A stretch of DNA of 64,000 bases, taken from sequence record LC739536.1; one strand, written 5' to 3'. Each line of letters begins with the position of its first letter. Position 1 is the first letter of the stretch. Below the pieces are notes generated by a model that was not told the DNA's origin, ran no database searches, and saw only the letters and a program-made list of their open reading frames with translations. The stretch is from Escherichia phage phiWec187. Below, in pieces: positions 1 through 60,507 of this stretch. The translations under genes and the position numbers were made by a program.

Positions 1-17
1 ACCTCCACGGTGAACGT

Positions 18-296
18 ATGTCTGAAATTGAAATCAGAAAGATGGTTGACAACTTCAACGCAAATATTACTAACGTAAGTGGTAATCTTGGTCATATCAA
101 AAACACCGATAAATTTAAACCAGTTAAGGCTTGGGTTAATGAAGTCGATTGTTATATTGGTGACGAGTTTGTTGTTGAAGGAACACCACTCGTTAAAATT
201 CAATTCTATGATCCTGAACTGTATGAAGCAAGAAAGAACGGCGTTCTTAAAGGTTTAAGTATTGGTGCAGTAGGATGTAAAGTGAAGAAGGATTAA
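18..296 (+). CDS. hypothetical protein; reading frame stays open to the window edge, so may be the 3' part of a longer upstream head-morphogenesis gene
   Basis: ORF track; no stop codon in frame between position 3 and the ATG at 18; sits immediately upstream of the scaffold-like gene. Confidence 0.3.
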   Translation: MSEIEIRKMVDNFNANITNVSGNLGHIKNTDKFKPVKAWVNEVDCYIGDEFVVEGTPLVKIQFYDPELYEARKNGVLKGLSIGAVGCKVKKD

Positions 297-298
297 TT

Positions 299-1414
299 GT
301 GGCACATACATATCTAGCTGACGTAGACTTTTCGGGTAAAGCTACGGAAGATTCTTGCGGAGCACACATTGCTTACACCTTCGATTTTCAAGGTGGTGCT
401 GCTTCTGGCTTTAATACCCCTCTACTTTTTAAATCTGGTGACAACCCAGACATTAGCTTCACTAAGTTAGAAGCTCTAGAAAAAATGGGTGAAGACGTTA
501 CTGAATTACGTAAATCATATATGAACCAACTTATGGGATCATTATCTGATGCCGTTCGTGAAAAATACGAATCTGGTTGGGATTGGGTTTATGTAGTCGA
601 TGCCGATTTTGATAATGGCATTGTTATTTTCTGTTCTGACTATGGAATGTTCTCTACTGATTTTACTATTAACGGACTTCTTGTTGAAGTTGGTGATGTT
701 GCAAAACCAGTAGTACAAACAACGGACTATGAAGTAGTAGACGGTGATGTTTTAGTTTCCCTGGATTTCTTTGATAACTTGATTGATGATGCTCTAGGTG
801 ATTTAGTTAAGAGCGCAATTAAGTTTGATCACGTAAAAGATTATTTAGTAAAAGCTCACGAAGCTCGTACTAATAAAGACTCTGTGATTGCAGAGGATAA
901 TCCAGCAGATCTTGAATCTGCAAACACAACCGATATAAATAAAGGAGATACCCCTTTGGAAAATATTAACAAAGAAGAATTCCTGAAATCTGCTGAGGTG
1001 CAAGACCTTATTAAAGCACAGATTGCAGAAGCGGTAGAAAAAGCTGCTGCTGAAGCTCGTGCAGAGGCAGAAGCTAAAGCACAGGAAGAAATCAACAAAG
1101 CTAAGGCAGAAGCCGAAGAACTTCGTAAAGCAGAAATTGCTCGTATCGAAGAAGACTATACCAATGTAATTAAGTCTTATGGCTATGTTGAAGAAGACAA
1201 AGTTGAAGCACTTGTTAAATACCTAGTAGATAACAAAGAAATTGCTGAAACTGTTGTTACTGCATTTGAAAAAGCTCGCGAAGAAGTTGAAACAGTTAAG
1301 AAAGAATTTGGCAAAGAAGTAGGTGTTGATGTTGAAAACAAAGAACCTGTTGCTAAATCTGCTTCTGAACTGATTCGTCAAAAAGCTGCTGAACTTAAAA
1401 AAGCCCAGAAATAA
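299..1414 (+). CDS. scaffolding-like head assembly protein
   Basis: GTG start after AAGGA; very acidic, with an Ala/Glu/Lys-rich coiled-coil C-terminal half (AEAVEKAAAEARAEAEAKAQEE...); lies just upstream of decoration and capsid genes. Confidence 0.45.
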   Translation: MAHTYLADVDFSGKATEDSCGAHIAYTFDFQGGAASGFNTPLLFKSGDNPDISFTKLEALEKMGEDVTELRKSYMNQLMGSLSDAVREKYESGWDWVYVVDADFDNGIVIFCSDYGMFSTDFTINGLLVEVGDVAKPVVQTTDYEVVDGDVLVSLDFFDNLIDDALGDLVKSAIKFDHVKDYLVKAHEARTNKDSVIAEDNPADLESANTTDINKGDTPLENINKEEFLKSAEVQDLIKAQIAEAVEKAAAEARAEAEAKAQEEINKAKAEAEELRKAEIARIEEDYTNVIKSYGYVEEDKVEALVKYLVDNKEIAETVVTAFEKAREEVETVKKEFGKEVGVDVENKEPVAKSASELIRQKAAELKKAQK

Positions 1415-1432
1415 TCTAAGGAGATTTAATTA

Positions 1433-1825
1433 ATGGCAACTGGAATTTCTTTATCAAACTACCGCCAGGAATTTGGACACCTTGTTCTGGGTGGAGTATT
1501 TAGTTCTGACCTAGGTCACTGTGTTCGTGAAGTGAACCTGGTTAAAACTGCAACCATGAAAATTGGTTCTGTACTGAAAGCTGACAACACAGAAGCTGCT
1601 TCTGCTGGTGAAGCTGTTAAAGTTCTGCTGTGGACTGACGCACTGTTCGGGATCGATGATGTTGCAGTAGGTGACACTTTCACCGCAGTTGTTGGTGTAC
1701 GTGACCTGACTCTCAACCGTTATGCAGTTTACTACAAGAGTGGTGATCTGATTGATGACGCTGGCGTTGCAGCACTGGAAACTCACGATCTGAAACTGAC
1801 TGAAAAAGTTGTTTTCACTTCTTAA
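1433..1825 (+). CDS. head decoration protein (lambda gpD-like)
   Basis: 130 aa; YYKSGDL segment resembles the FYKSGTF segment of lambda gpD as I recall it; position immediately upstream of major capsid gene. Confidence 0.5.
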   Translation: MATGISLSNYRQEFGHLVLGGVFSSDLGHCVREVNLVKTATMKIGSVLKADNTEAASAGEAVKVLLWTDALFGIDDVAVGDTFTAVVGVRDLTLNRYAVYYKSGDLIDDAGVAALETHDLKLTEKVVFTS

Positions 1826-1846
1826 TTTTTAATAGGAGATTTATAC

Positions 1847-2848
1847 ATGCCAGCTATTATCTTAGATCAGGTTGTTGACTTTAGCCCAATGATTGAGCTA
1901 CAAGAAACTCCTGATACACTTATCGCAAGTCTGAACCTGTTTGATGTTCAGTATCATGCTACCACTGCTATCGAAATTGGCAGACAGAAAAATGCAGATG
2001 GTCTGATCCCAGCACGTGAACGTGGTGGTGAGCGTAACTTCCTGACTATGGACGCTCCAAGCGTTAAAGTCTTCCGTATTCCGTTCTTCCCTCTGGATAA
2101 GAACATTAAGGCACAGGATATTCAATCCTTCCGTAGCTTCGCTATGGGTGGCATCAATGATAACCTGCGTACCGAAGCGGAAGTTGTTAACCGCTATATG
2201 ACTCAAATCCTGCGTGATGTTGCAAAAACTAAAGAAAAAATCTTTGCAGAAGCAGTAATGGGTCGTGCATACAATGGTGTTGGTGGTGCAGCTAACTCTG
2301 CATACAACTGGTACACCGAATGGGGTGCTACCCAGAAATCAGTATCTGTAGATTTCGCTTCTACTACTGTTTCTCCGGCTGCTACCATTGAGCAAGAAGC
2401 TCGTGCATACATCATCGATCAGAAACAAGACGGTTCTACCGCTACTCGTATCGTTGCTCTGTGCTCTCGTGAGTTCTTTGCTTCTCTGGTTAACTCTCCG
2501 TTTGTTCGCCAGGCTTATCAATACTTCCAAGGTACTCCGAACCTTCTGCGTGACCGCCTAAGCGGTAATATGGACGTTCAGGTATTCGAATGGAATGGTG
2601 TAACCTACATCGAAGATATCCACGGTAACATCCCTGCTGGTGAAGCGTTTGTTCTGCCAATGGGTATCCCAGATATGTTCCAGGCGCACTATGCTCCAGC
2701 GGATACTCCAGAACTGGCTAACACTGTTGCTCGTGATCTGTATACCTTTATGGTATCTGAACACCGCACTGTACAGCTACAGTCTGAATTCTCCCTGCTG
2801 GCGGTTAACACCCGTCCAGAACTGGTAGTTAAACTGACTACTGCTTAA
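1847..2848 (+). CDS. major capsid protein (lambda gpE-like family)
   Basis: 333 aa, size and position after the decoration gene; strong RBS AGGAGA; followed by a strong terminator, typical of a highly expressed capsid gene. Confidence 0.6.
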   Translation: MPAIILDQVVDFSPMIELQETPDTLIASLNLFDVQYHATTAIEIGRQKNADGLIPARERGGERNFLTMDAPSVKVFRIPFFPLDKNIKAQDIQSFRSFAMGGINDNLRTEAEVVNRYMTQILRDVAKTKEKIFAEAVMGRAYNGVGGAANSAYNWYTEWGATQKSVSVDFASTTVSPAATIEQEARAYIIDQKQDGSTATRIVALCSREFFASLVNSPFVRQAYQYFQGTPNLLRDRLSGNMDVQVFEWNGVTYIEDIHGNIPAGEAFVLPMGIPDMFQAHYAPADTPELANTVARDLYTFMVSEHRTVQLQSEFSLLAVNTRPELVVKLTTA

Positions 2849-55250: not shown

Positions 55251-56411
55251 TTAGTAAGAACGACCACCAAACACATACTCTGTGTAGTTTTTACGTTCTT
55301 TGTTTTTAATAACAACTTCAATGTTGTTGCCTTTATCATCGGTGAACACAAAGTGATAACCGTCACCACCCATTGTACGGATGTGTTTTTCATCATACGT
55401 CAGCAAGATACGGTCTACACCCCAGTAGTAGTCACCTTCTTCGTCTTTATCTTCTACGGTAACGACTCCTTCCATTTCAGGAAGATGCTCTTCTCCTGAC
55501 TTATGATCTACAGCTACAACATAACGATTACCGCTAAACAAACCTTGTGCTGTCATACCGTCAATATCTGTATCTGACGAAACATCTCCTGTACGATCTA
55601 CACCGTTAACTTTCAGAAGTTTAACTTCTTTTGCAGCATAGCGGTGTTCAGTAATACTGATACCCATTAATGCAAGTGCATCAGAGAATTTGTCATTAGG
55701 GTAACGGTTAAGTTCTTCTACTAATGACTGAACAATATCAAAGTTCAAGTCCACGGAAAGATTATAAAGCGTTTCAAAATCTGGTAAAAAGGCTTTGTTC
55801 TCCAGATTTTTAGCCAGATAGTCATCCATAGTAGCTTTAGGTAGTTTCTTATAGCTAAAGCTGTAGAAAATACGGCTAGGACGATTACGCAAAAATTCTG
55901 ATACATAACCATCGTTTTTAGTCAATACAAACAGCTTGTCGTAGCCACCTACACCATCCAGCAGGGTAAGCAAGCCATCCTGTGCATCTTTTTCAGCATA
56001 CAGTTTATCAAATTCATCGATCATAATCATCACAGGTTGTGTGATTTTAGACATAAAATTGATAAAGCCTTCGCCATTAAAAGCACTACCGATAGAAATA
56101 GTAGGAATACCCATTTCACGAAGAGCAGAAGACAGCATTTTAGCTTGCAAAGTTTTACCGCTACCCTTCGTACCCTCAAGGAGAACACCTGTGTTTTTAC
56201 CTTTGCGGCTAAGGAACGTCTTGATAATACGTTCTGATTTATCATCAGTATCACCGTATGTTACTGAAGGGACTTCCATATCGTTTTTAGGATACAGGAA
56301 GAACTCACCACTTTGAGTAACACCTACACCAAAAGTTCCTGCTGGAATTTCTTCAATATCTGTACCAGACTTCTGACGCAGGAAGATTTGATTGCCGAAT
56401 ACTGTAAACAT
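55251..56411 (-). CDS. AAA-type ATPase of unknown function
   Basis: 386 aa; Walker A GTKGSGKT and Walker B VMIMIDEFD; GAGGAG RBS. Confidence 0.55.
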   Translation of the reverse strand: MFTVFGNQIFLRQKSGTDIEEIPAGTFGVGVTQSGEFFLYPKNDMEVPSVTYGDTDDKSERIIKTFLSRKGKNTGVLLEGTKGSGKTLQAKMLSSALREMGIPTISIGSAFNGEGFINFMSKITQPVMIMIDEFDKLYAEKDAQDGLLTLLDGVGGYDKLFVLTKNDGYVSEFLRNRPSRIFYSFSYKKLPKATMDDYLAKNLENKAFLPDFETLYNLSVDLNFDIVQSLVEELNRYPNDKFSDALALMGISITEHRYAAKEVKLLKVNGVDRTGDVSSDTDIDGMTAQGLFSGNRYVVAVDHKSGEEHLPEMEGVVTVEDKDEEGDYYWGVDRILLTYDEKHIRTMGGDGYHFVFTDDKGNNIEVVIKNKERKNYTEYVFGGRSY

Positions 56412-56431
56412 AGTTTTCTCCTCTATTTAAT

Positions 56432-56902
56432 TTAGTCAGATTCCCAAATGTTGTCTTTCTTAATCCACATTCGTTGATTATCTGAACCTCTATAACGTTT
56501 CGTTGTTGGTTGATTCATATCATACTTACCATCTATCACTATGTCAACCAGTTTTTTAATTTTTTCTGGAATTTCCTCAAAAAGATATCCTGTATATAAG
56601 ACAATATCTTTTTTGTTTCCAAAACAATCTCTTACCTTCTCAAGAACATACTCTACAGTGTCAATGTTCTCTTTGTCAAGAGGTTCACCACCTAAAACTG
56701 TTAATCCTTTAATGAAAGGTCGAGATAAATCTTTCAAGATAAGATCTAATGTTTCAGTAGTGAACTCTTGTCCGTGGTTATACGACCAGGCTTTCTGGTT
56801 AAAGCAGCCACGGCAACCGTGGCTACAACCGCTCACCCACAAAGAGCATCTTACACCGTCACCGTTGAGCATGTCAACAGGTTCATATCCGGCGTAATTC
56901 AA
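56432..56902 (-). CDS. nrdG: anaerobic ribonucleotide reductase activating protein (radical SAM)
   Basis: 156 aa; CSHGCRGC radical-SAM cluster motif; start overlaps the nrdD stop. Confidence 0.8.
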   Translation of the reverse strand: MNYAGYEPVDMLNGDGVRCSLWVSGCSHGCRGCFNQKAWSYNHGQEFTTETLDLILKDLSRPFIKGLTVLGGEPLDKENIDTVEYVLEKVRDCFGNKKDIVLYTGYLFEEIPEKIKKLVDIVIDGKYDMNQPTTKRYRGSDNQRMWIKKDNIWESD

Positions 56903-57840
56903 AAATGTTTCTCCCTTTCTAGTACCTCTTGCATTTTACCTTTATTATAGGGGCGAGAGTTAGGGGCAGAAAGGTATCCTGACACTCTTCTGATCACAGA
57001 TATGGATTCTTCTTCATGATTGCCACAACTTGGACACTCGAAGCCTTTAGCCGTTGCTTTAAATTCACCATGAAAACCACATTTGAAACACTGATCTACA
57101 GGTTGGTTCACACCAAAATAAGGAATTTTGTTGTAGGCATAATCTACAAGAGTTTCCAGTGCTTGCAAGTTATTTTTAAGGTTTGGTGTTTCTACATAAC
57201 CTATGTTCCCACCATTACTGATTTGTGCAAAACCTTCCTCATAATCCCACTTTTGGAACGGGGTAGTGTGCATCCATACAGGTTGATGGAAAGAGTTTGT
57301 CAAGTAGTCACGATCAATAGAACCAGGATAGCGATCATTTAATGCTTTGGCAAATTTATAGCACAAGGATTCTGCTGGTGTTCCATACAAACTAAAAGCT
57401 AAACCAGAACGTTCTTTAAATGTGCCACAGATATCCTTCATATATTGAAGGATGTTTTTACCCATTGCTTTTGTATTGGTGTTACCTGGGTATAAAATCT
57501 CCATAGCTTCTGCTAAACCTACATAACCGATACTAATAGAGGCATAACCACCTTCGAATAGTTTACCAATCTCTTCATTAGCTTCTAGTCGAGCTAAAGC
57601 CCCTTCCATAAACAATGTAGGGTTTTGAGATGCTTTGGTATGTCTAATACGGTTAACACGTAGCATATGTGCCTTATACGCCATCTCCATATGTTGTTCC
57701 AACAGTTCAGTAAATAAGATGCCCTTTTCACGGGACTCTGCTGCAATGATAGGTAAGTTTAAAGAAACCACGCCTAAGTTGAAACGACCATCATATTTTT
57801 CACCTTGCTCTGTTGCGTAGTATGACAAGAAACTTCTACA
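56899..57840 (-). CDS. nrdD: anaerobic ribonucleoside-triphosphate reductase, exon 2
   Basis: CRSFLSYY...DGRFNLGVVSLNLP aligns with my recollection of E. coli NrdD; C-terminal CPSCG zinc site and RVSGYL glycyl-radical motif; proposed exon start at the Cys codon 57838-57840. Confidence 0.75.
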   Translation of the reverse strand, partial: CRSFLSYYATEQGEKYDGRFNLGVVSLNLPIIAAESREKGILFTELLEQHMEMAYKAHMLRVNRIRHTKASQNPTLFMEGALARLEANEEIGKLFEGGYASISIGYVGLAEAMEILYPGNTNTKAMGKNILQYMKDICGTFKERSGLAFSLYGTPAESLCYKFAKALNDRYPGSIDRDYLTNSFHQPVWMHTTPFQKWDYEEGFAQISNGGNIGYVETPNLKNNLQALETLVDYAYNKIPYFGVNQPVDQCFKCGFHGEFKATAKGFECPSCGNHEEESISVIRRVSGYLSAPNSRPYNKGKMQEVLEREKHF

Positions 57841-58609
57841 CATTATGTTCAAAGTGGCTCGCAAGGCCACTCCCGCACCATTACGTGCTGCTGCATGTCA
57901 CCATGCAGATCAGACTATATCTTCATGCTTAAAGCATGTCTACCATTTGGGGTGTCATAGGCTTACACCCTACGCTGCTACATTCATCACAGCTAGTCGT
58001 TAGGCATTTCGTAACAGAACTCATAATCATAATTATTTGGTGCTCCTCGCTTTAAGATTGCAGATATTCTTTTTCTGTCCAACCCTAAAGCGTCAGCACA
58101 ACATCTCAGACTTTTAAAGTAAAAAACTTCACCGGTAGCCTTATGAGTAGCTTTTACACTGTGACACCTTGTGTAGAAAGCATAACAGTTATTATCGTAA
58201 CCCTCTTGCGTGTTGTCTGGACAAGATCCCCACTCAAGATTGTATACACTATTGTCTTTCCTATTGTCACCTTTATGCTTCACATAAGGTAAATTGTCTG
58301 GATTGGGTAAAAACGCTTCAGCTACAAGTCTGTGCACCCGAAAGCAAACAGTTTTCTTGTTTTTACGTATTCTGACAAGTTGGTATCCTGTGTTTATTTC
58401 TTCCCACGAGCGAAGGATTCTTTCATCCTTATACCTGGTACAATAAACATTTCCAAGCTCGTCAATTTCATACCCTTCAAAATCACGAATTTGTTTTCTC
58501 ATATCAGTACCCCCTTCTTCTGTGTTGGGAGTTCTGTTACGTTTAGCACGGGATTGTCTCGTTGAGAGTTCCCCCGTTTAGGCAGATTTTACATGAGCAG
58601 TTATAGTTT
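57841..58609 (-). mobile_element. group-I-intron-like intervening sequence in nrdD carrying an HNH homing endonuclease ORF
   Basis: nrdD frame broken between ...VTSMG and CRSFL...; exon 1 ends in U (GGT) and the intervening sequence ends in G, as in group I introns; no RBS or ATG precedes exon 2. Confidence 0.55.
57993..58502 (-). CDS. HNH homing endonuclease (intron-encoded)
   Basis: 169 aa; ELGNVYC...GYQLVRIR...VHRLVAEAFLPNP...NLEW resembles the HNH_3/NUMOD pattern of phage homing endonucleases. Confidence 0.7.
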   Translation of the reverse strand: MRKQIRDFEGYEIDELGNVYCTRYKDERILRSWEEINTGYQLVRIRKNKKTVCFRVHRLVAEAFLPNPDNLPYVKHKGDNRKDNSVYNLEWGSCPDNTQEGYDNNCYAFYTRCHSVKATHKATGEVFYFKSLRCCADALGLDRKRISAILKRGAPNNYDYEFCYEMPND

Positions 58610-59467
58610 ACCCATGCTTGTGACGCGACCATCTGAAGATCCTGTAACTTCTTTGTTTAAAGGTACAGAGATAAAATCAGGATAAATGCGTTCAGCACAA
58701 CACTCCATTGCCAGTTGCTTCAAATCATAGTTTGGATCGCCAGCTTTCATGTTAACACCATCTTCCAAGAAGAAGATAACTTTAGGAAACACAGGAGTTA
58801 CCCTATCTTTTCCTAATCCTTGTTTGTGCACCATTAGGTAGTTTTTAGTGATCATTCTACCAAAAGCAGAGGTATCCAAGCCTAAACTAATTGTTATAAA
58901 AGGTGACTGACCATTTACACTCATTAGGGTGTTCACCTGGTAGATTAAAGTTTGCATTGCATCATAAACCTGTTTATCTACCATACGCATAGCAATATCA
59001 TAATCGCCAACATCGGCGTATATTTTATTAAAACTTGCTTTAACGTATTGACTAAGCCCAGTATCAATATGTGCACAAGTTTGTCCACCATATTGGCTAG
59101 AAGCTACTGCTTGAATAATTTGAGTTAGGACAGTAGTTGCTACACCGATAGATTTTGGTTTTTCAATATGTGCATTACCAATACGGAAACCGTTCTCAAG
59201 CATATCTTGGTAATTTACCAGGCAACAATTAGTTAGAGGTGAGAGTAAATAATCTAAATCGTGAATGTGACCATACCCACTTTTATGCCATTCTGCCAGA
59301 TCTTCCGGTAAAATATGGGTCATTGCCATGTGCTTGCTTAGGATACCTGCTAGTAAGTCTCGGTGAGTATTAACAATCATTGCAGGTTTGTTTGCATTTT
59401 CACGAGTAAATTCTTCGGATGTTTGTTCGAGGAATCCGATTACATCCTCATATAGTTTTTGGGTCAT
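58610..59467 (-). CDS. nrdD: anaerobic ribonucleoside-triphosphate reductase, exon 1
   Basis: N-terminal 286 aa of NrdD; track ORF runs two codons further to a stop inside the proposed intron. Confidence 0.75.
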
Positions 59468-59486
59468 TAATCCTCCGTGGAAAATA

Positions 59487-59509
59487 AAAGCCAGCTTAAT
59501 GCTGGCTTT
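59487..59509 (-). terminator. terminator hairpin upstream of nrdD
   Basis: stem aaagccagc / gctggcttt with ttaat loop; minus-strand ttttattttcc follows. Confidence 0.45.
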
Positions 59510-59556
59510 AGGGTGGATCTTTATTTTAAATCTTTTTCGTAAGATTGTCCTTGATC

Positions 59557-60507
59557 TTAGTCAAGGTTTTTGGTAATACGTGTACAACCGTCAGAAGTCA
59601 AACCGTCAACTTGAGTTTCCCAAGTACCATGAATATTTCGGAACAATGTTGTTACACCTTTTGGTTCATTAATAATGATTGCCATAACAAGTTTAGGATC
59701 GATAACAGACATAATCTTTTCCTCAATACCCTCTGTAATAACATTATTGCGCACAATATTAATTGCATCTTCTTGTACAGTAAGAACACTTACGTTCTTA
59801 AGAGTATATACCTGCTGTGTAGTGTAAATAATACGAACATAACTTACAGAACGAGTAGGCACAGGTTTACGCGGTCGGCGAAAACGTGGTTTTGGTGAAG
59901 ATTCAGTCTTACTTTCATTTTTTGAATAATACTCCTCAAACAGTTTAGTAAATGTTTTTACATCAACTACAAACCGATCTTTCCTATATGGAGAATTCTT
60001 ATGTGCACCATTAATACCACTGTTTTCATCGAAGAAAGTAATGTTTTCTTCAGTTGAATACATTAGATAATGCTCTGCATTTTTCCAATGTGGTTGTGGA
60101 CAACGAGGATTACAAACGGAAAGCAAATAATTAATATTTTCTTCCGTGGCCTCAGTATCCAGGAAACACGTATTATGCACAGTCAGTTGTACTTTTTCAG
60201 CCATATCCTTTTCTTTATCCTCATTGGTAAGATATTCAATACGAAGAATTTCCAGAAAATTTTCAGGTGTTACTTCCATAAATGTATATTCAGGATGAAG
60301 TTCCATATATTCAAATCCACAACCATCTAATTGCTGTAGAAAGTTAGGGTAGAAGAACAAATCATTAACACTGTGAATCAGATCATTGATTTCTGCTTCA
60401 GTTGTGTAACCAAAACTTTTGTGAATTGCCTCGTTAAGAATATGCAGGATACCCATCTCTTCTGCTGCTTTTTTAACTTCCAGTTTATTAGCGTAAAATG
60501 CAATCAT
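59557..60507 (-). CDS. hypothetical protein
   Basis: 316 aa ORF. Confidence 0.3.
   Translation of the reverse strand: MIAFYANKLEVKKAAEEMGILHILNEAIHKSFGYTTEAEINDLIHSVNDLFFYPNFLQQLDGCGFEYMELHPEYTFMEVTPENFLEILRIEYLTNEDKEKDMAEKVQLTVHNTCFLDTEATEENINYLLSVCNPRCPQPHWKNAEHYLMYSTEENITFFDENSGINGAHKNSPYRKDRFVVDVKTFTKLFEEYYSKNESKTESSPKPRFRRPRKPVPTRSVSYVRIIYTTQQVYTLKNVSVLTVQEDAINIVRNNVITEGIEEKIMSVIDPKLVMAIIINEPKGVTTLFRNIHGTWETQVDGLTSDGCTRITKNLD

Follow-up and report, generated by a model that had tools for sequence, protein, structure and literature searches.

Group I introns in phage ribonucleotide reductase (RNR) genes, HNH endonucleases encoded in the loops of such introns, the co-conversion of neighbouring exon DNA and the decay of the endonuclease genes are all established. 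Reviews cover the introns in td, nrdB and nrdD of phage T4, the intron in gene 43 of phage 25, and a putative gene 43 intron in phage JSE; the T4 nrdD intron is treated in the literature as self-splicing, and for JSE a 2010 review of T4-related genomes gives the gene 43 intron only. Our literature search found no description of the intron treated here in Justusliebigvirus (phi92-like) or Phapecoctavirus (phAPEC8-like) phages. In this study, we analyzed a stretch of 64,000 nucleotides (nt) of Escherichia phage phiWec187 (LC739536.1; hereafter the window), which comes from a phi92-like coliphage of the genus Justusliebigvirus and in which the class III RNR gene nrdD is interrupted by a 769-nt insert. 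Judged from its sequence, the insert is very probably a mobile, self-splicing group I intron of the T4 type (subgroup IA2), located at Gly286/Cys287 of NrdD and carrying its own HNH homing-endonuclease gene.

Three open reading frames (ORFs) lie on the minus strand at nrdD, namely 59467..58601 (288 amino acids, aa), 58502..57993 (169 aa) and 57870..56899 (323 aa). An earlier note on this DNA had described nrdD as two ORFs with a 169-aa HNH ORF between them on the same strand, and the ORF coordinates and the positions in the Pfam profile bear this description out; the limits that it gave for the intervening sequence, 57841..58609, proved to be the exact limits of the intron. In an unspliced transcript, the frame of exon 1 would run two codons into the intron and end at a UAA at 58603..58601. 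The interrupted gene is laid out as follows.

58610..59467, minus strand: nrdD exon 1, codons 1-286, ending in ...AUG GGU (Pfam NRDD positions 1-263, E-value 1e-72)
57841..58609, minus strand: predicted group I (IA2-type) intron of 769 nt, first base A at 58609, last base the terminal G at 57841
57993..58502, minus strand: predicted I-HmuI-like HNH homing endonuclease ORF, 169 aa, in the P6 loop, with a UAG stop at 57995..57993
56899..57840, minus strand: nrdD exon 2, codons 287-599, first codon the finger-loop Cys UGU (Pfam NRDD 263-562 and Gly_radical)

The 5′ boundary falls between 58610 and 58609 (...AGC AUG GGU/AAACUAUAA...) and the 3′ boundary between 57841 and 57840 (...AACAUAAUG/UGU AGA AGU..., exon 2 opening with the residues C, R and S), and the ligated RNA is predicted to read ...AGCAUGGGU/UGUAGAAGU... 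across the junction. The last base of exon 1 is U (58610) and that of the intervening sequence is G (57841), just as the earlier note had stated. Joining 59467..58610 with 57840..56899 in silico yielded a 599-aa NrdD (...VTSMG/CRSFL...) that is identical at 598 of 599 positions to the uninterrupted NrdD of the sister phage muut, with T409P as the sole difference. In a four-way DNA alignment, muut, which belongs to the same genus, reads ...AGCATGGGT TGCCGTAGT... and lacks 769 nt exactly at the predicted point, where GGT is followed by TG(T/C). This match at the junction is far beyond chance, and the protein and DNA comparisons agree on the exact joint, VTSMG/CRSFL, that had been proposed from the window alone. 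The comparison with T4 nrdD suggested in the same note was run against the structure of T4 NrdD (PDB 1H78), which aligned end to end with the spliced protein (E-value 1.8e-164) and placed the junction at Gly289/Cys290 of the T4 enzyme, with residues counted along the alignment; by this count, the finger-loop Cys of T4 has the number 290. The intron is inserted in phase 0 between the codons of Gly286 and Cys287, which corresponds to the Met-Gly/Cys tip of the catalytic finger loop. The radical chemistry is set off by the conserved Cys of this loop, and a part in catalysis has also been proposed for the Met next to it (PMC4493059).

An Rfam scan of the whole window at the gathering threshold gave no match. 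A sensitive scan of 57700..58750 detected Intron_gpI (RF00028) at 57998..57891 on the minus strand with 39.2 bits (E-value 2.7e-8), covering P7.1 to P9 only, where the curated cut-off is 50 bits. The intron was missed, and its score is low, because the 490-nt ORF insertion splits the core. Without nt 103-592 (the HNH ORF), the window intron equals that of phi92 at all 279 positions, and the phi92 intron matches the whole model (positions 1-253) with 70.6 bits (E-value 1.3e-16); the T4 nrdD intron scored 105 bits in the same run. The ORF-less relatives PD06 and Avunavirus reached 70.4 and 79.8 bits, whereas the other ORF-containing relatives stayed at about 38.6 bits, and therefore the ORF accounts systematically for the low score of the window. 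A covariance-model search for the P3-P7 core had been named beforehand as a test that could overturn the intron reading, and the core was found (70.6 bits with the ORF removed). For annotation practice, this shows that phage group I introns with an ORF escape Rfam when its gathering threshold is applied. In blastn, the core of the intron was 70.5% identical to that of the T4 nrdD intron over 219 nt (E-value 8e-21), identity to the T4 nrdD (sunY) core lying at about 66-70%, and the T4 td intron was also matched. A match to mir-553 inside the ORF (18 bits, E-value 2.7) was taken as chance.

The helices, drawn by eye and then placed in window coordinates, make up a complete IA2-type fold from P1 to P9.2 without P2, and all of them are still paired in the window sequence itself. 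They are listed below, with lengths in base pairs (bp).

58591..58617, minus strand: P1, exon GCAUGGGU (58617..58610) and internal guide GCUCAUGU (58598..58591), U·G at the splice site
58606..58602 with 57840..57836, minus strand: possible P10, CUAUA in the P1 loop and UGUAG of exon 2, 5 bp
58586..58581 with 57944..57939, minus strand: P3, UCUGCC/GGUAGA, 6 bp, 100% paired, 3 compensatory pairs
58577..58572 with 58553..58548, minus strand: P4, ACGGGG/UCCCGU, in the 5′ core (58548..58586)
58567..58564 with 58560..58557, minus strand: P5, UCUC/GAGA, in the 5′ core (58548..58586)
58541..58534 with 58017..58010, minus strand: P6, CGUAACAG/CUGUUACG, compensatory changes in 7 of 8 pairs
58509..58532, minus strand: P6a hairpin, ACUCCC/GGGGGU
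57998..57994 with 57917..57913, minus strand: P7, GACUA/UAGUC, 5 bp, 100% paired, in the 3′ core (57913..57998)
57993..57974, minus strand: P7.1, 5 bp, 4 with compensatory changes
57970..57950, minus strand: P7.2, 6 bp, 2 with compensatory changes
57937..57925, minus strand: P8, AUGCU/AGCAU, 5 bp, UUA loop
57924..57918, minus strand: J8/7, GAAGAUA
57907..57892, minus strand: P9, in the 3′ peripheral domain (57841..57907)
57888..57875, minus strand: P9.1, in the 3′ peripheral domain
57870..57854, minus strand: P9.2, in the 3′ peripheral domain

Covariation was examined in nine sequences after excision of their ORFs: the window, PD06, nieznany, HMD-6, JSE, Vibrio F97, SP116, Avunavirus 18-1-2 and T4. 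Standard pairs occupy 94.1% of the 632 cells, and this share falls to 33-46% if the 3′ strands are shifted by 1-3 columns. Both bases have changed in 39 of the 73 pairs, no helix from P1 to P9.2 lacks a compensatory pair, and none of 500 shuffles matched any of five measures. The structure came from one aligned sequence, so that the usual caveat on pair counts applies, but the compensatory pairs are too many to be explained by this origin; the MAFFT alignment misplaces parts of P6 (T4 and Avunavirus), P8 and P9.1, and the counts there are slightly pessimistic. The U·G pair at the splice site is invariant in 9/9 homologues, one other P1 pair shows a compensatory change, and the P1 hairpin has a folding energy of -9.5 kcal/mol (z -3.8). 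Both P3 and the G-binding P7, which together make the group I pseudoknot, are present; P7 has a single compensatory pair, U-A to C-G in Avunavirus 18-1-2, and J8/7 (GAAGAUAUAGUC) is invariant among the homologues. The P6 stem (58010..58541) encloses the P6a hairpin and the endonuclease ORF. At the other end, the 3′ peripheral domain and the 3′ terminus of the T4 nrdD intron are homologous. The tail UUUGAACAUAAUG closes with the terminal G, which is the last base in all nine homologues. Extra helices P7.1 and P7.2 between P7 and P3′ and likeness to the T4 td, nrdB and nrdD introns are marks of subgroup IA2 (generally known, and also reviewed in PMC3984707). Here both helices are present, and blastn found the T4 nrdD and td introns. 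The ribozyme core, the covarying fold and the natural intron-less allele thus all agree with the group I intron that the earlier note had proposed.

The protein encoded in the P6 loop aligned over its full length with I-HmuI (PDB 1U3E; residues 3-166 against 4-172, E-value 8e-9) and matched phrog_59 (HNH endonuclease) with an E-value of 1.9e-34. The Pfam matches are weaker: HNH_3 scored 22.0 bits (E-value 1.2e-4), under its 24.8-bit cut-off, and PF22083 (I-HmuI NUMOD-like) scored 25.4 bits (E-value 1e-5) against a cut-off of 27, while the alignment with 1U3E reaches residue 166 of 169. Of the HNH (beta-beta-alpha metal) motif of I-HmuI, the general base His75 and the residues Asn87 and Asn96, with structural and metal-binding parts, are conserved. 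The position of Asp74, reportedly a metal ligand of I-HmuI, is taken by Lys (VKHK) in the window, JSE and SP116, and by Cys in Vibrio F97 (VCHL). The last eight codons and the stop of the ORF are encoded by P6′, J6/7 and the 5′ strand of P7; the C-terminal E-M-P-N-D and stop read GAA AUG CCU AAC GAC UAG, and even the T4 intron, which has no ORF at this place, conserves the stretch. Pairing within the P6a hairpin is predicted for the Shine-Dalgarno sequence AAGGGGG of the ORF; in the more distant HMD-6 and Vibrio F97 versions, equivalent hairpins of different sequence are predicted to sequester theirs (z about -2.9 in both). We infer from these modeled folds that translation of the endonuclease may be held down to spare ribozyme folding; a restraint of this kind is on record for endonuclease ORFs extending into the core of an intron (PMC3984707).

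The distribution of the element points to mobility. Around nrdD, a 2.8-kb region of the window is 99% identical to that of Escherichia phages arall, VEcB and SD2. A survey of 54 Justusliebigvirus records with exons at least 95% identical showed 31 empty sites, 13 introns of 279/280 nt, 6 of 290 nt, and 4 ORF-containing introns of 769 nt (arall, two VEcB records and SD2), and the presence of the intron varies even inside named species (alia and VEcB). The 279-nt form (phi92) joins GGGGGUA/CUGUUACG and the 290-nt form (PD06) joins GAAGGG/UUAUGAUUAUGAGUU-CUGUUACG, both at about intron positions 95-120; the 290-nt form keeps 15 nt more of the 3′ end of the ORF, and therefore at least two independent deletions of the endonuclease gene have occurred. 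The same intron is found in Phapecoctavirus nieznany, where 766 of 771 positions (99.4%) are identical to the window. The endonuclease ORF is intact and 99.4% identical between the two genera, in which the exons are only about 75% identical; the exons of nieznany are about 98% identical to those of the intron-less phAPEC8. An exception in this phAPEC8-type gene is exon 2 from nt +1 to about +33, which is of the window type, and the 5′ exon has no such tract. A tract on one side only is what would be left if a break or nick a little downstream of the insertion site were repaired. Mobility is therefore indicated by the patchy distribution together with the appearance of the ~33-nt exon 2 tract in another genus. 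Exon 2 starts with UGUAGA in all intron-bearing alleles examined except Vibrio F97, and empty sites have UGCCGU or UGUCGU; UGUAGA would fit co-conversion and P10 pairing equally. The genus thus shows the stages of a homing cycle side by side: the empty site, the intron with its endonuclease, and two independent deletions of the endonuclease. Together with a clean inter-genus transfer and a short one-sided tract, these stages make the genus a handy natural setting in which to study how introns invade and decay in therapeutic-type coliphages.

Several records with unexpected host labels are also about 99% identical to the nrdD region of the window, namely the "Campylobacter phage" records A145, A110a, A150 and C3 (MG065645, MG065689, MG065639 and MG065656), "Serratia phage" KKP_3264 and "Salmonella phage" UAB_1. 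These labels on phi92-like records may reflect a broad host range or mislabelling.

The proposed course of events is as follows. After transcription, the ribozyme would fold, and exogenous guanosine would attack after U58610; the freed 3′-OH of exon 1 would then attack after G57841, with P10 aligning the exons, to give an mRNA for full-length NrdD. Little of the endonuclease would be made, or only at a late stage, since P6a locks up its Shine-Dalgarno sequence and since reading through P6′ and P7 would unfold the ribozyme. In a mixed infection, it would nick or cut the intron-less nrdD slightly downstream of the insertion site, and through recombinational repair the recipient would receive a copy of the intron along with about 30-40 nt of exon 2. 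In a lineage where the intron has become fixed, the gene for the endonuclease would decay, and the sister phages carry two different deletions of it. What a carrier phage may gain is a matter of speculation; by analogy with what has been reported for PhiPA3, intron-less competitors might be excluded in co-infection.

Other explanations of the locus were weighed against a mobile, self-splicing intron. The earlier note had kept as its alternative a gene in pieces, in which a free-standing HNH gene was inserted, no splicing takes place, and an active reductase forms from two separately translated polypeptides, one of 288 aa and the other of about 320 aa. A working split RNR is known, since NrdA of Aeromonas phage Aeh1 is split by mobE (reviewed in the literature), and the stop of exon 1 two codons into the insert would suit such an arrangement. 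So would the candidate starts before exon 2. The earlier note was mistaken in holding that no independent ribosome-binding site (RBS) or ATG precedes exon 2: the last three bases of the intron are an in-frame AUG immediately before the Cys codon, which is the start codon in the JSE record, and an in-frame GUG (57870) and UUG (57864) follow a GGGAG that the annotators of phi92 and arall, who entered separate genes, took as an RBS. These start-like bases are more likely structural than translational, because they lie inside the covarying P9.1/P9.2 region, whose stems are conserved. Moreover, a complete covarying group I core flanks the ORF, a split would separate Met-Gly from Cys at the very tip of the finger loop, and the insertion of a free-standing endonuclease leaves unexplained the ORF-less element of 279-290 nt that occupies the same base in 19 sister records. 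With a complete ribozyme around the ORF and ORF-less copies at the same site, this alternative is extremely improbable. A decayed intron, of group I origin and splicing inefficiently, would leave nrdD effectively a pseudogene, tolerated as the host or aerobic RNR supplies deoxynucleotides; NrdD is indeed dispensable in aerobic laboratory growth, and the reach of the ORF into P6′/P7 could disturb folding. Yet neither exon is damaged and together they match the uninterrupted homologue at 598/599 positions, ORF-containing and ORF-less copies agree at 100% in the core with all helices paired in the window, and the intron is kept in many independently isolated phages, which makes decay very unlikely. 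An intein was rejected, as translation in the frame of exon 1 would meet a stop after two codons of the insert, the ORF opens with a start of its own, and untranslated ribozyme helices make up the 3′ end of the insert.

It is also conceivable, though unlikely, that the intron splices while its endonuclease is inactive or domesticated, for example as a maturase-like helper or with another target, the patchy distribution then arising from ordinary recombination and intron loss. The replacement of the I-HmuI metal ligand Asp74 by Lys, the two Pfam domain matches slightly below their curated cut-offs, and the presence of the ORF in just 4 of 54 close relatives, against ORF-less introns in 19, would be in keeping with this view. 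On the other side, the ORF is intact and 99.4% identical across genera, and a short exon 2 tract moved with the intron; VKHK is kept in the 47-50% identical homologues of Krischvirus and Felixounavirus (VCHL in F97), and selection on the endonuclease protein is therefore indicated. A number of points weigh against the preferred reading of a mobile, self-splicing intron with an active endonuclease. Splicing and cleavage are inferred, splicing on the grounds of the structure and of kinship with the T4 nrdD intron. The Rfam score of the window itself is below the curated cut-off, and the gathering-threshold scan was empty. P10 has just 5 bp, is set 3 nt apart from the strand of P1, and pairs less well in some homologues (80.6% of its cells are paired). 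Given the change of Asp74 to Lys, the catalytic competence of the endonuclease is likely but not certain. The case for co-conversion comes from one inter-genus comparison together with the within-genus difference between TGT AGA and TGC CGT. Finally, no promoter was detectable for the endonuclease in a scan of 56300..59800, which gave 12 promoter-like sites against 10.2 expected and is uninformative on phage-specific promoters.

Downstream of the element, and given for context only, lies the following gene.

56432..56902, minus strand: nrdG (activating enzyme), outside the element

The UUG start of nrdG and the UGA stop of nrdD overlap by 4 nt (UUGA, 56899..56902, minus strand), an arrangement suggestive of translational coupling between reductase and activase. 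At 59487..59509 on the minus strand, 20 nt upstream of the start codon of nrdD, is a terminator-like hairpin (AAAGCCAGCAUUAAGCUGGCUUU, then UAUUUU); terminator-like sites in 56300..59800 are about as numerous as chance would give. No tRNA genes were found in the 64-kb window, and a second group I core motif (AAGAUAUAGUC or UGAUGAAUGUA) is absent from the rest of it.

The locus has been annotated in various ways. In GenBank FR775895, phi92 gp192A is already given as a two-piece "spliced variant", and the nearest ORF-containing records (arall, VEcB and SD2) carry two NrdD fragments and a hypothetical protein, while some close ORF-containing records label the middle ORF "HNH homing endonuclease". 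The two "NrdD fragments" and the "hypothetical protein" should be annotated as one spliced nrdD and an intron-encoded homing endonuclease. The element is a well-supported, ordinary phage mobile element, and the principles of group I introns are unchanged by it.

Homologous introns with HNH ORFs 47-91% identical occur at the Gly/Cys site in Krischvirus JSE, HMD-6, Felixounavirus SP116 and Vibrio phage F97, and an ORF-less 252-nt intron occupies this site in an Avunavirus. JSE, SP116, F97, HMD-6 and nieznany share with the window the Gly/Cys site, the intron family and homologous endonucleases (47-99% identity), and these endonucleases take their C-terminal EMPND from the ribozyme core, except that of SP116, which stops earlier, in J6/7. 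They differ from the window in belonging to unrelated host-phage lineages, and no intron is annotated in their records. In the record of Vibrio phage F97 (OZ195764, 1..2669), nrdD appears in more than two annotated pieces (369..875, 1629..2288 and 2289..2669), with a second HNH gene upstream at 1..241, which suggests extra interruptions or a frameshift besides the Gly/Cys intron. The IMG/VR database was scanned with a pattern of 17 specified bases, which yields lower bounds and not frequencies; because many chance matches are possible by a rough estimate, loci were counted only with a downstream AGAUAURGUC or an NrdD homologue. The results showed at least 120 loci, with the AGAUAURGUC core motif downstream in at least 78, an NrdD homologue at the motif in at least 81, and I-HmuI-like ORFs at no fewer than 19 loci; intron lengths were estimated at about 190 to about 1180 nt among the matches listed. 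The element is therefore common. Among the IMG/VR loci (L057, L053 and L116, for example) is a large group of NrdD genes from uncultivated viruses whose exon 1 ends in ...VDWSGNxGYDxNDPxTYFSTMG, and NrdD genes of this type have group I introns, some with HNH ORFs, at the Met-Gly/Cys site far outside the enterobacterial phages. Elsewhere, Aeromonas phage phiA009 (OM033134) shows Rfam group I matches at 1033..1249 (32 bits) and 1329..1608 (90 bits) beside an unannotated HNH_3 ORF (462..1139), in a region annotated as hypothetical proteins only; the downstream ORF has a faint tape-measure match.

Among the known systems, the closest is the phi92 intron (FR775895), which sits at the same site in the same genus and is 100% identical to the window over its whole 279 nt. 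It differs in being without nt 103-592, that is, the whole endonuclease ORF bar the last 24 nt, and the copy in the window is the ORF-containing and presumably still mobile form. In Aeromonas phage Aeh1, an RNR gene is likewise broken by a same-strand HNH endonuclease gene, but there is no ribozyme and two polypeptides are made, whereas the ORF in the window lies inside a complete group I core. As for the endonuclease, I-HmuI from the DNA-polymerase intron of Bacillus phage SPO1 is of similar size (174 against 169 aa), is also encoded in a phage group I intron, and shares over the full-length alignment the N-terminal HNH domain, with His75, Asn87 and Asn96 kept, and a putative C-terminal NUMOD-like/helix-turn-helix DNA-binding domain. 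The two proteins are only about 27% identical, Asp74 is replaced by Lys, the target genes differ, and nicking is known for I-HmuI.

The T4 nrdD (sunY) intron shares with that of the window the host gene, a homologous ribozyme and an identical internal guide (GCUCAUGUAAAAUCUGCC), and P7.1/P7.2, J8/7, P9 and the 3′ tail are alike; the 5′ exon hexamer is AUGAGU in T4 and AUGGGU in the window. The T4 intron (KJ477685, 2491..3523) is located about 110 codons upstream, at about codon 180, in phase 1 of a Tyr codon after ...UAUGAGU, whereas that of the window follows ...CAUGGGU at codon 286 in phase 0. Its endonuclease, I-TevII, is a GIY-YIG enzyme encoded in the P9.1 loop, whereas the endonuclease of the window is an unrelated HNH protein encoded in P6. 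We tentatively propose, as a possibility that is more doubtful than probable, that a single intron-plus-HNH lineage targets the invariant Met-Gly/Cys finger-loop codons of class III RNR and has passed between unrelated phages, being a sister of the T4 nrdD intron that switched its site by reverse splicing and then captured a different endonuclease. The introns concerned are spread over Stephanstirmvirinae, Vequintavirinae, Krischvirus, Felixounavirus, vibriophages and many uncultivated viruses, and both this cross-lineage distribution and the shared guide sequence are demonstrated. The reverse-splicing step from the T4 site to the Gly/Cys site is speculation, and the pattern of sites and guides in T4 and the window would be compatible with an old switch of this kind.

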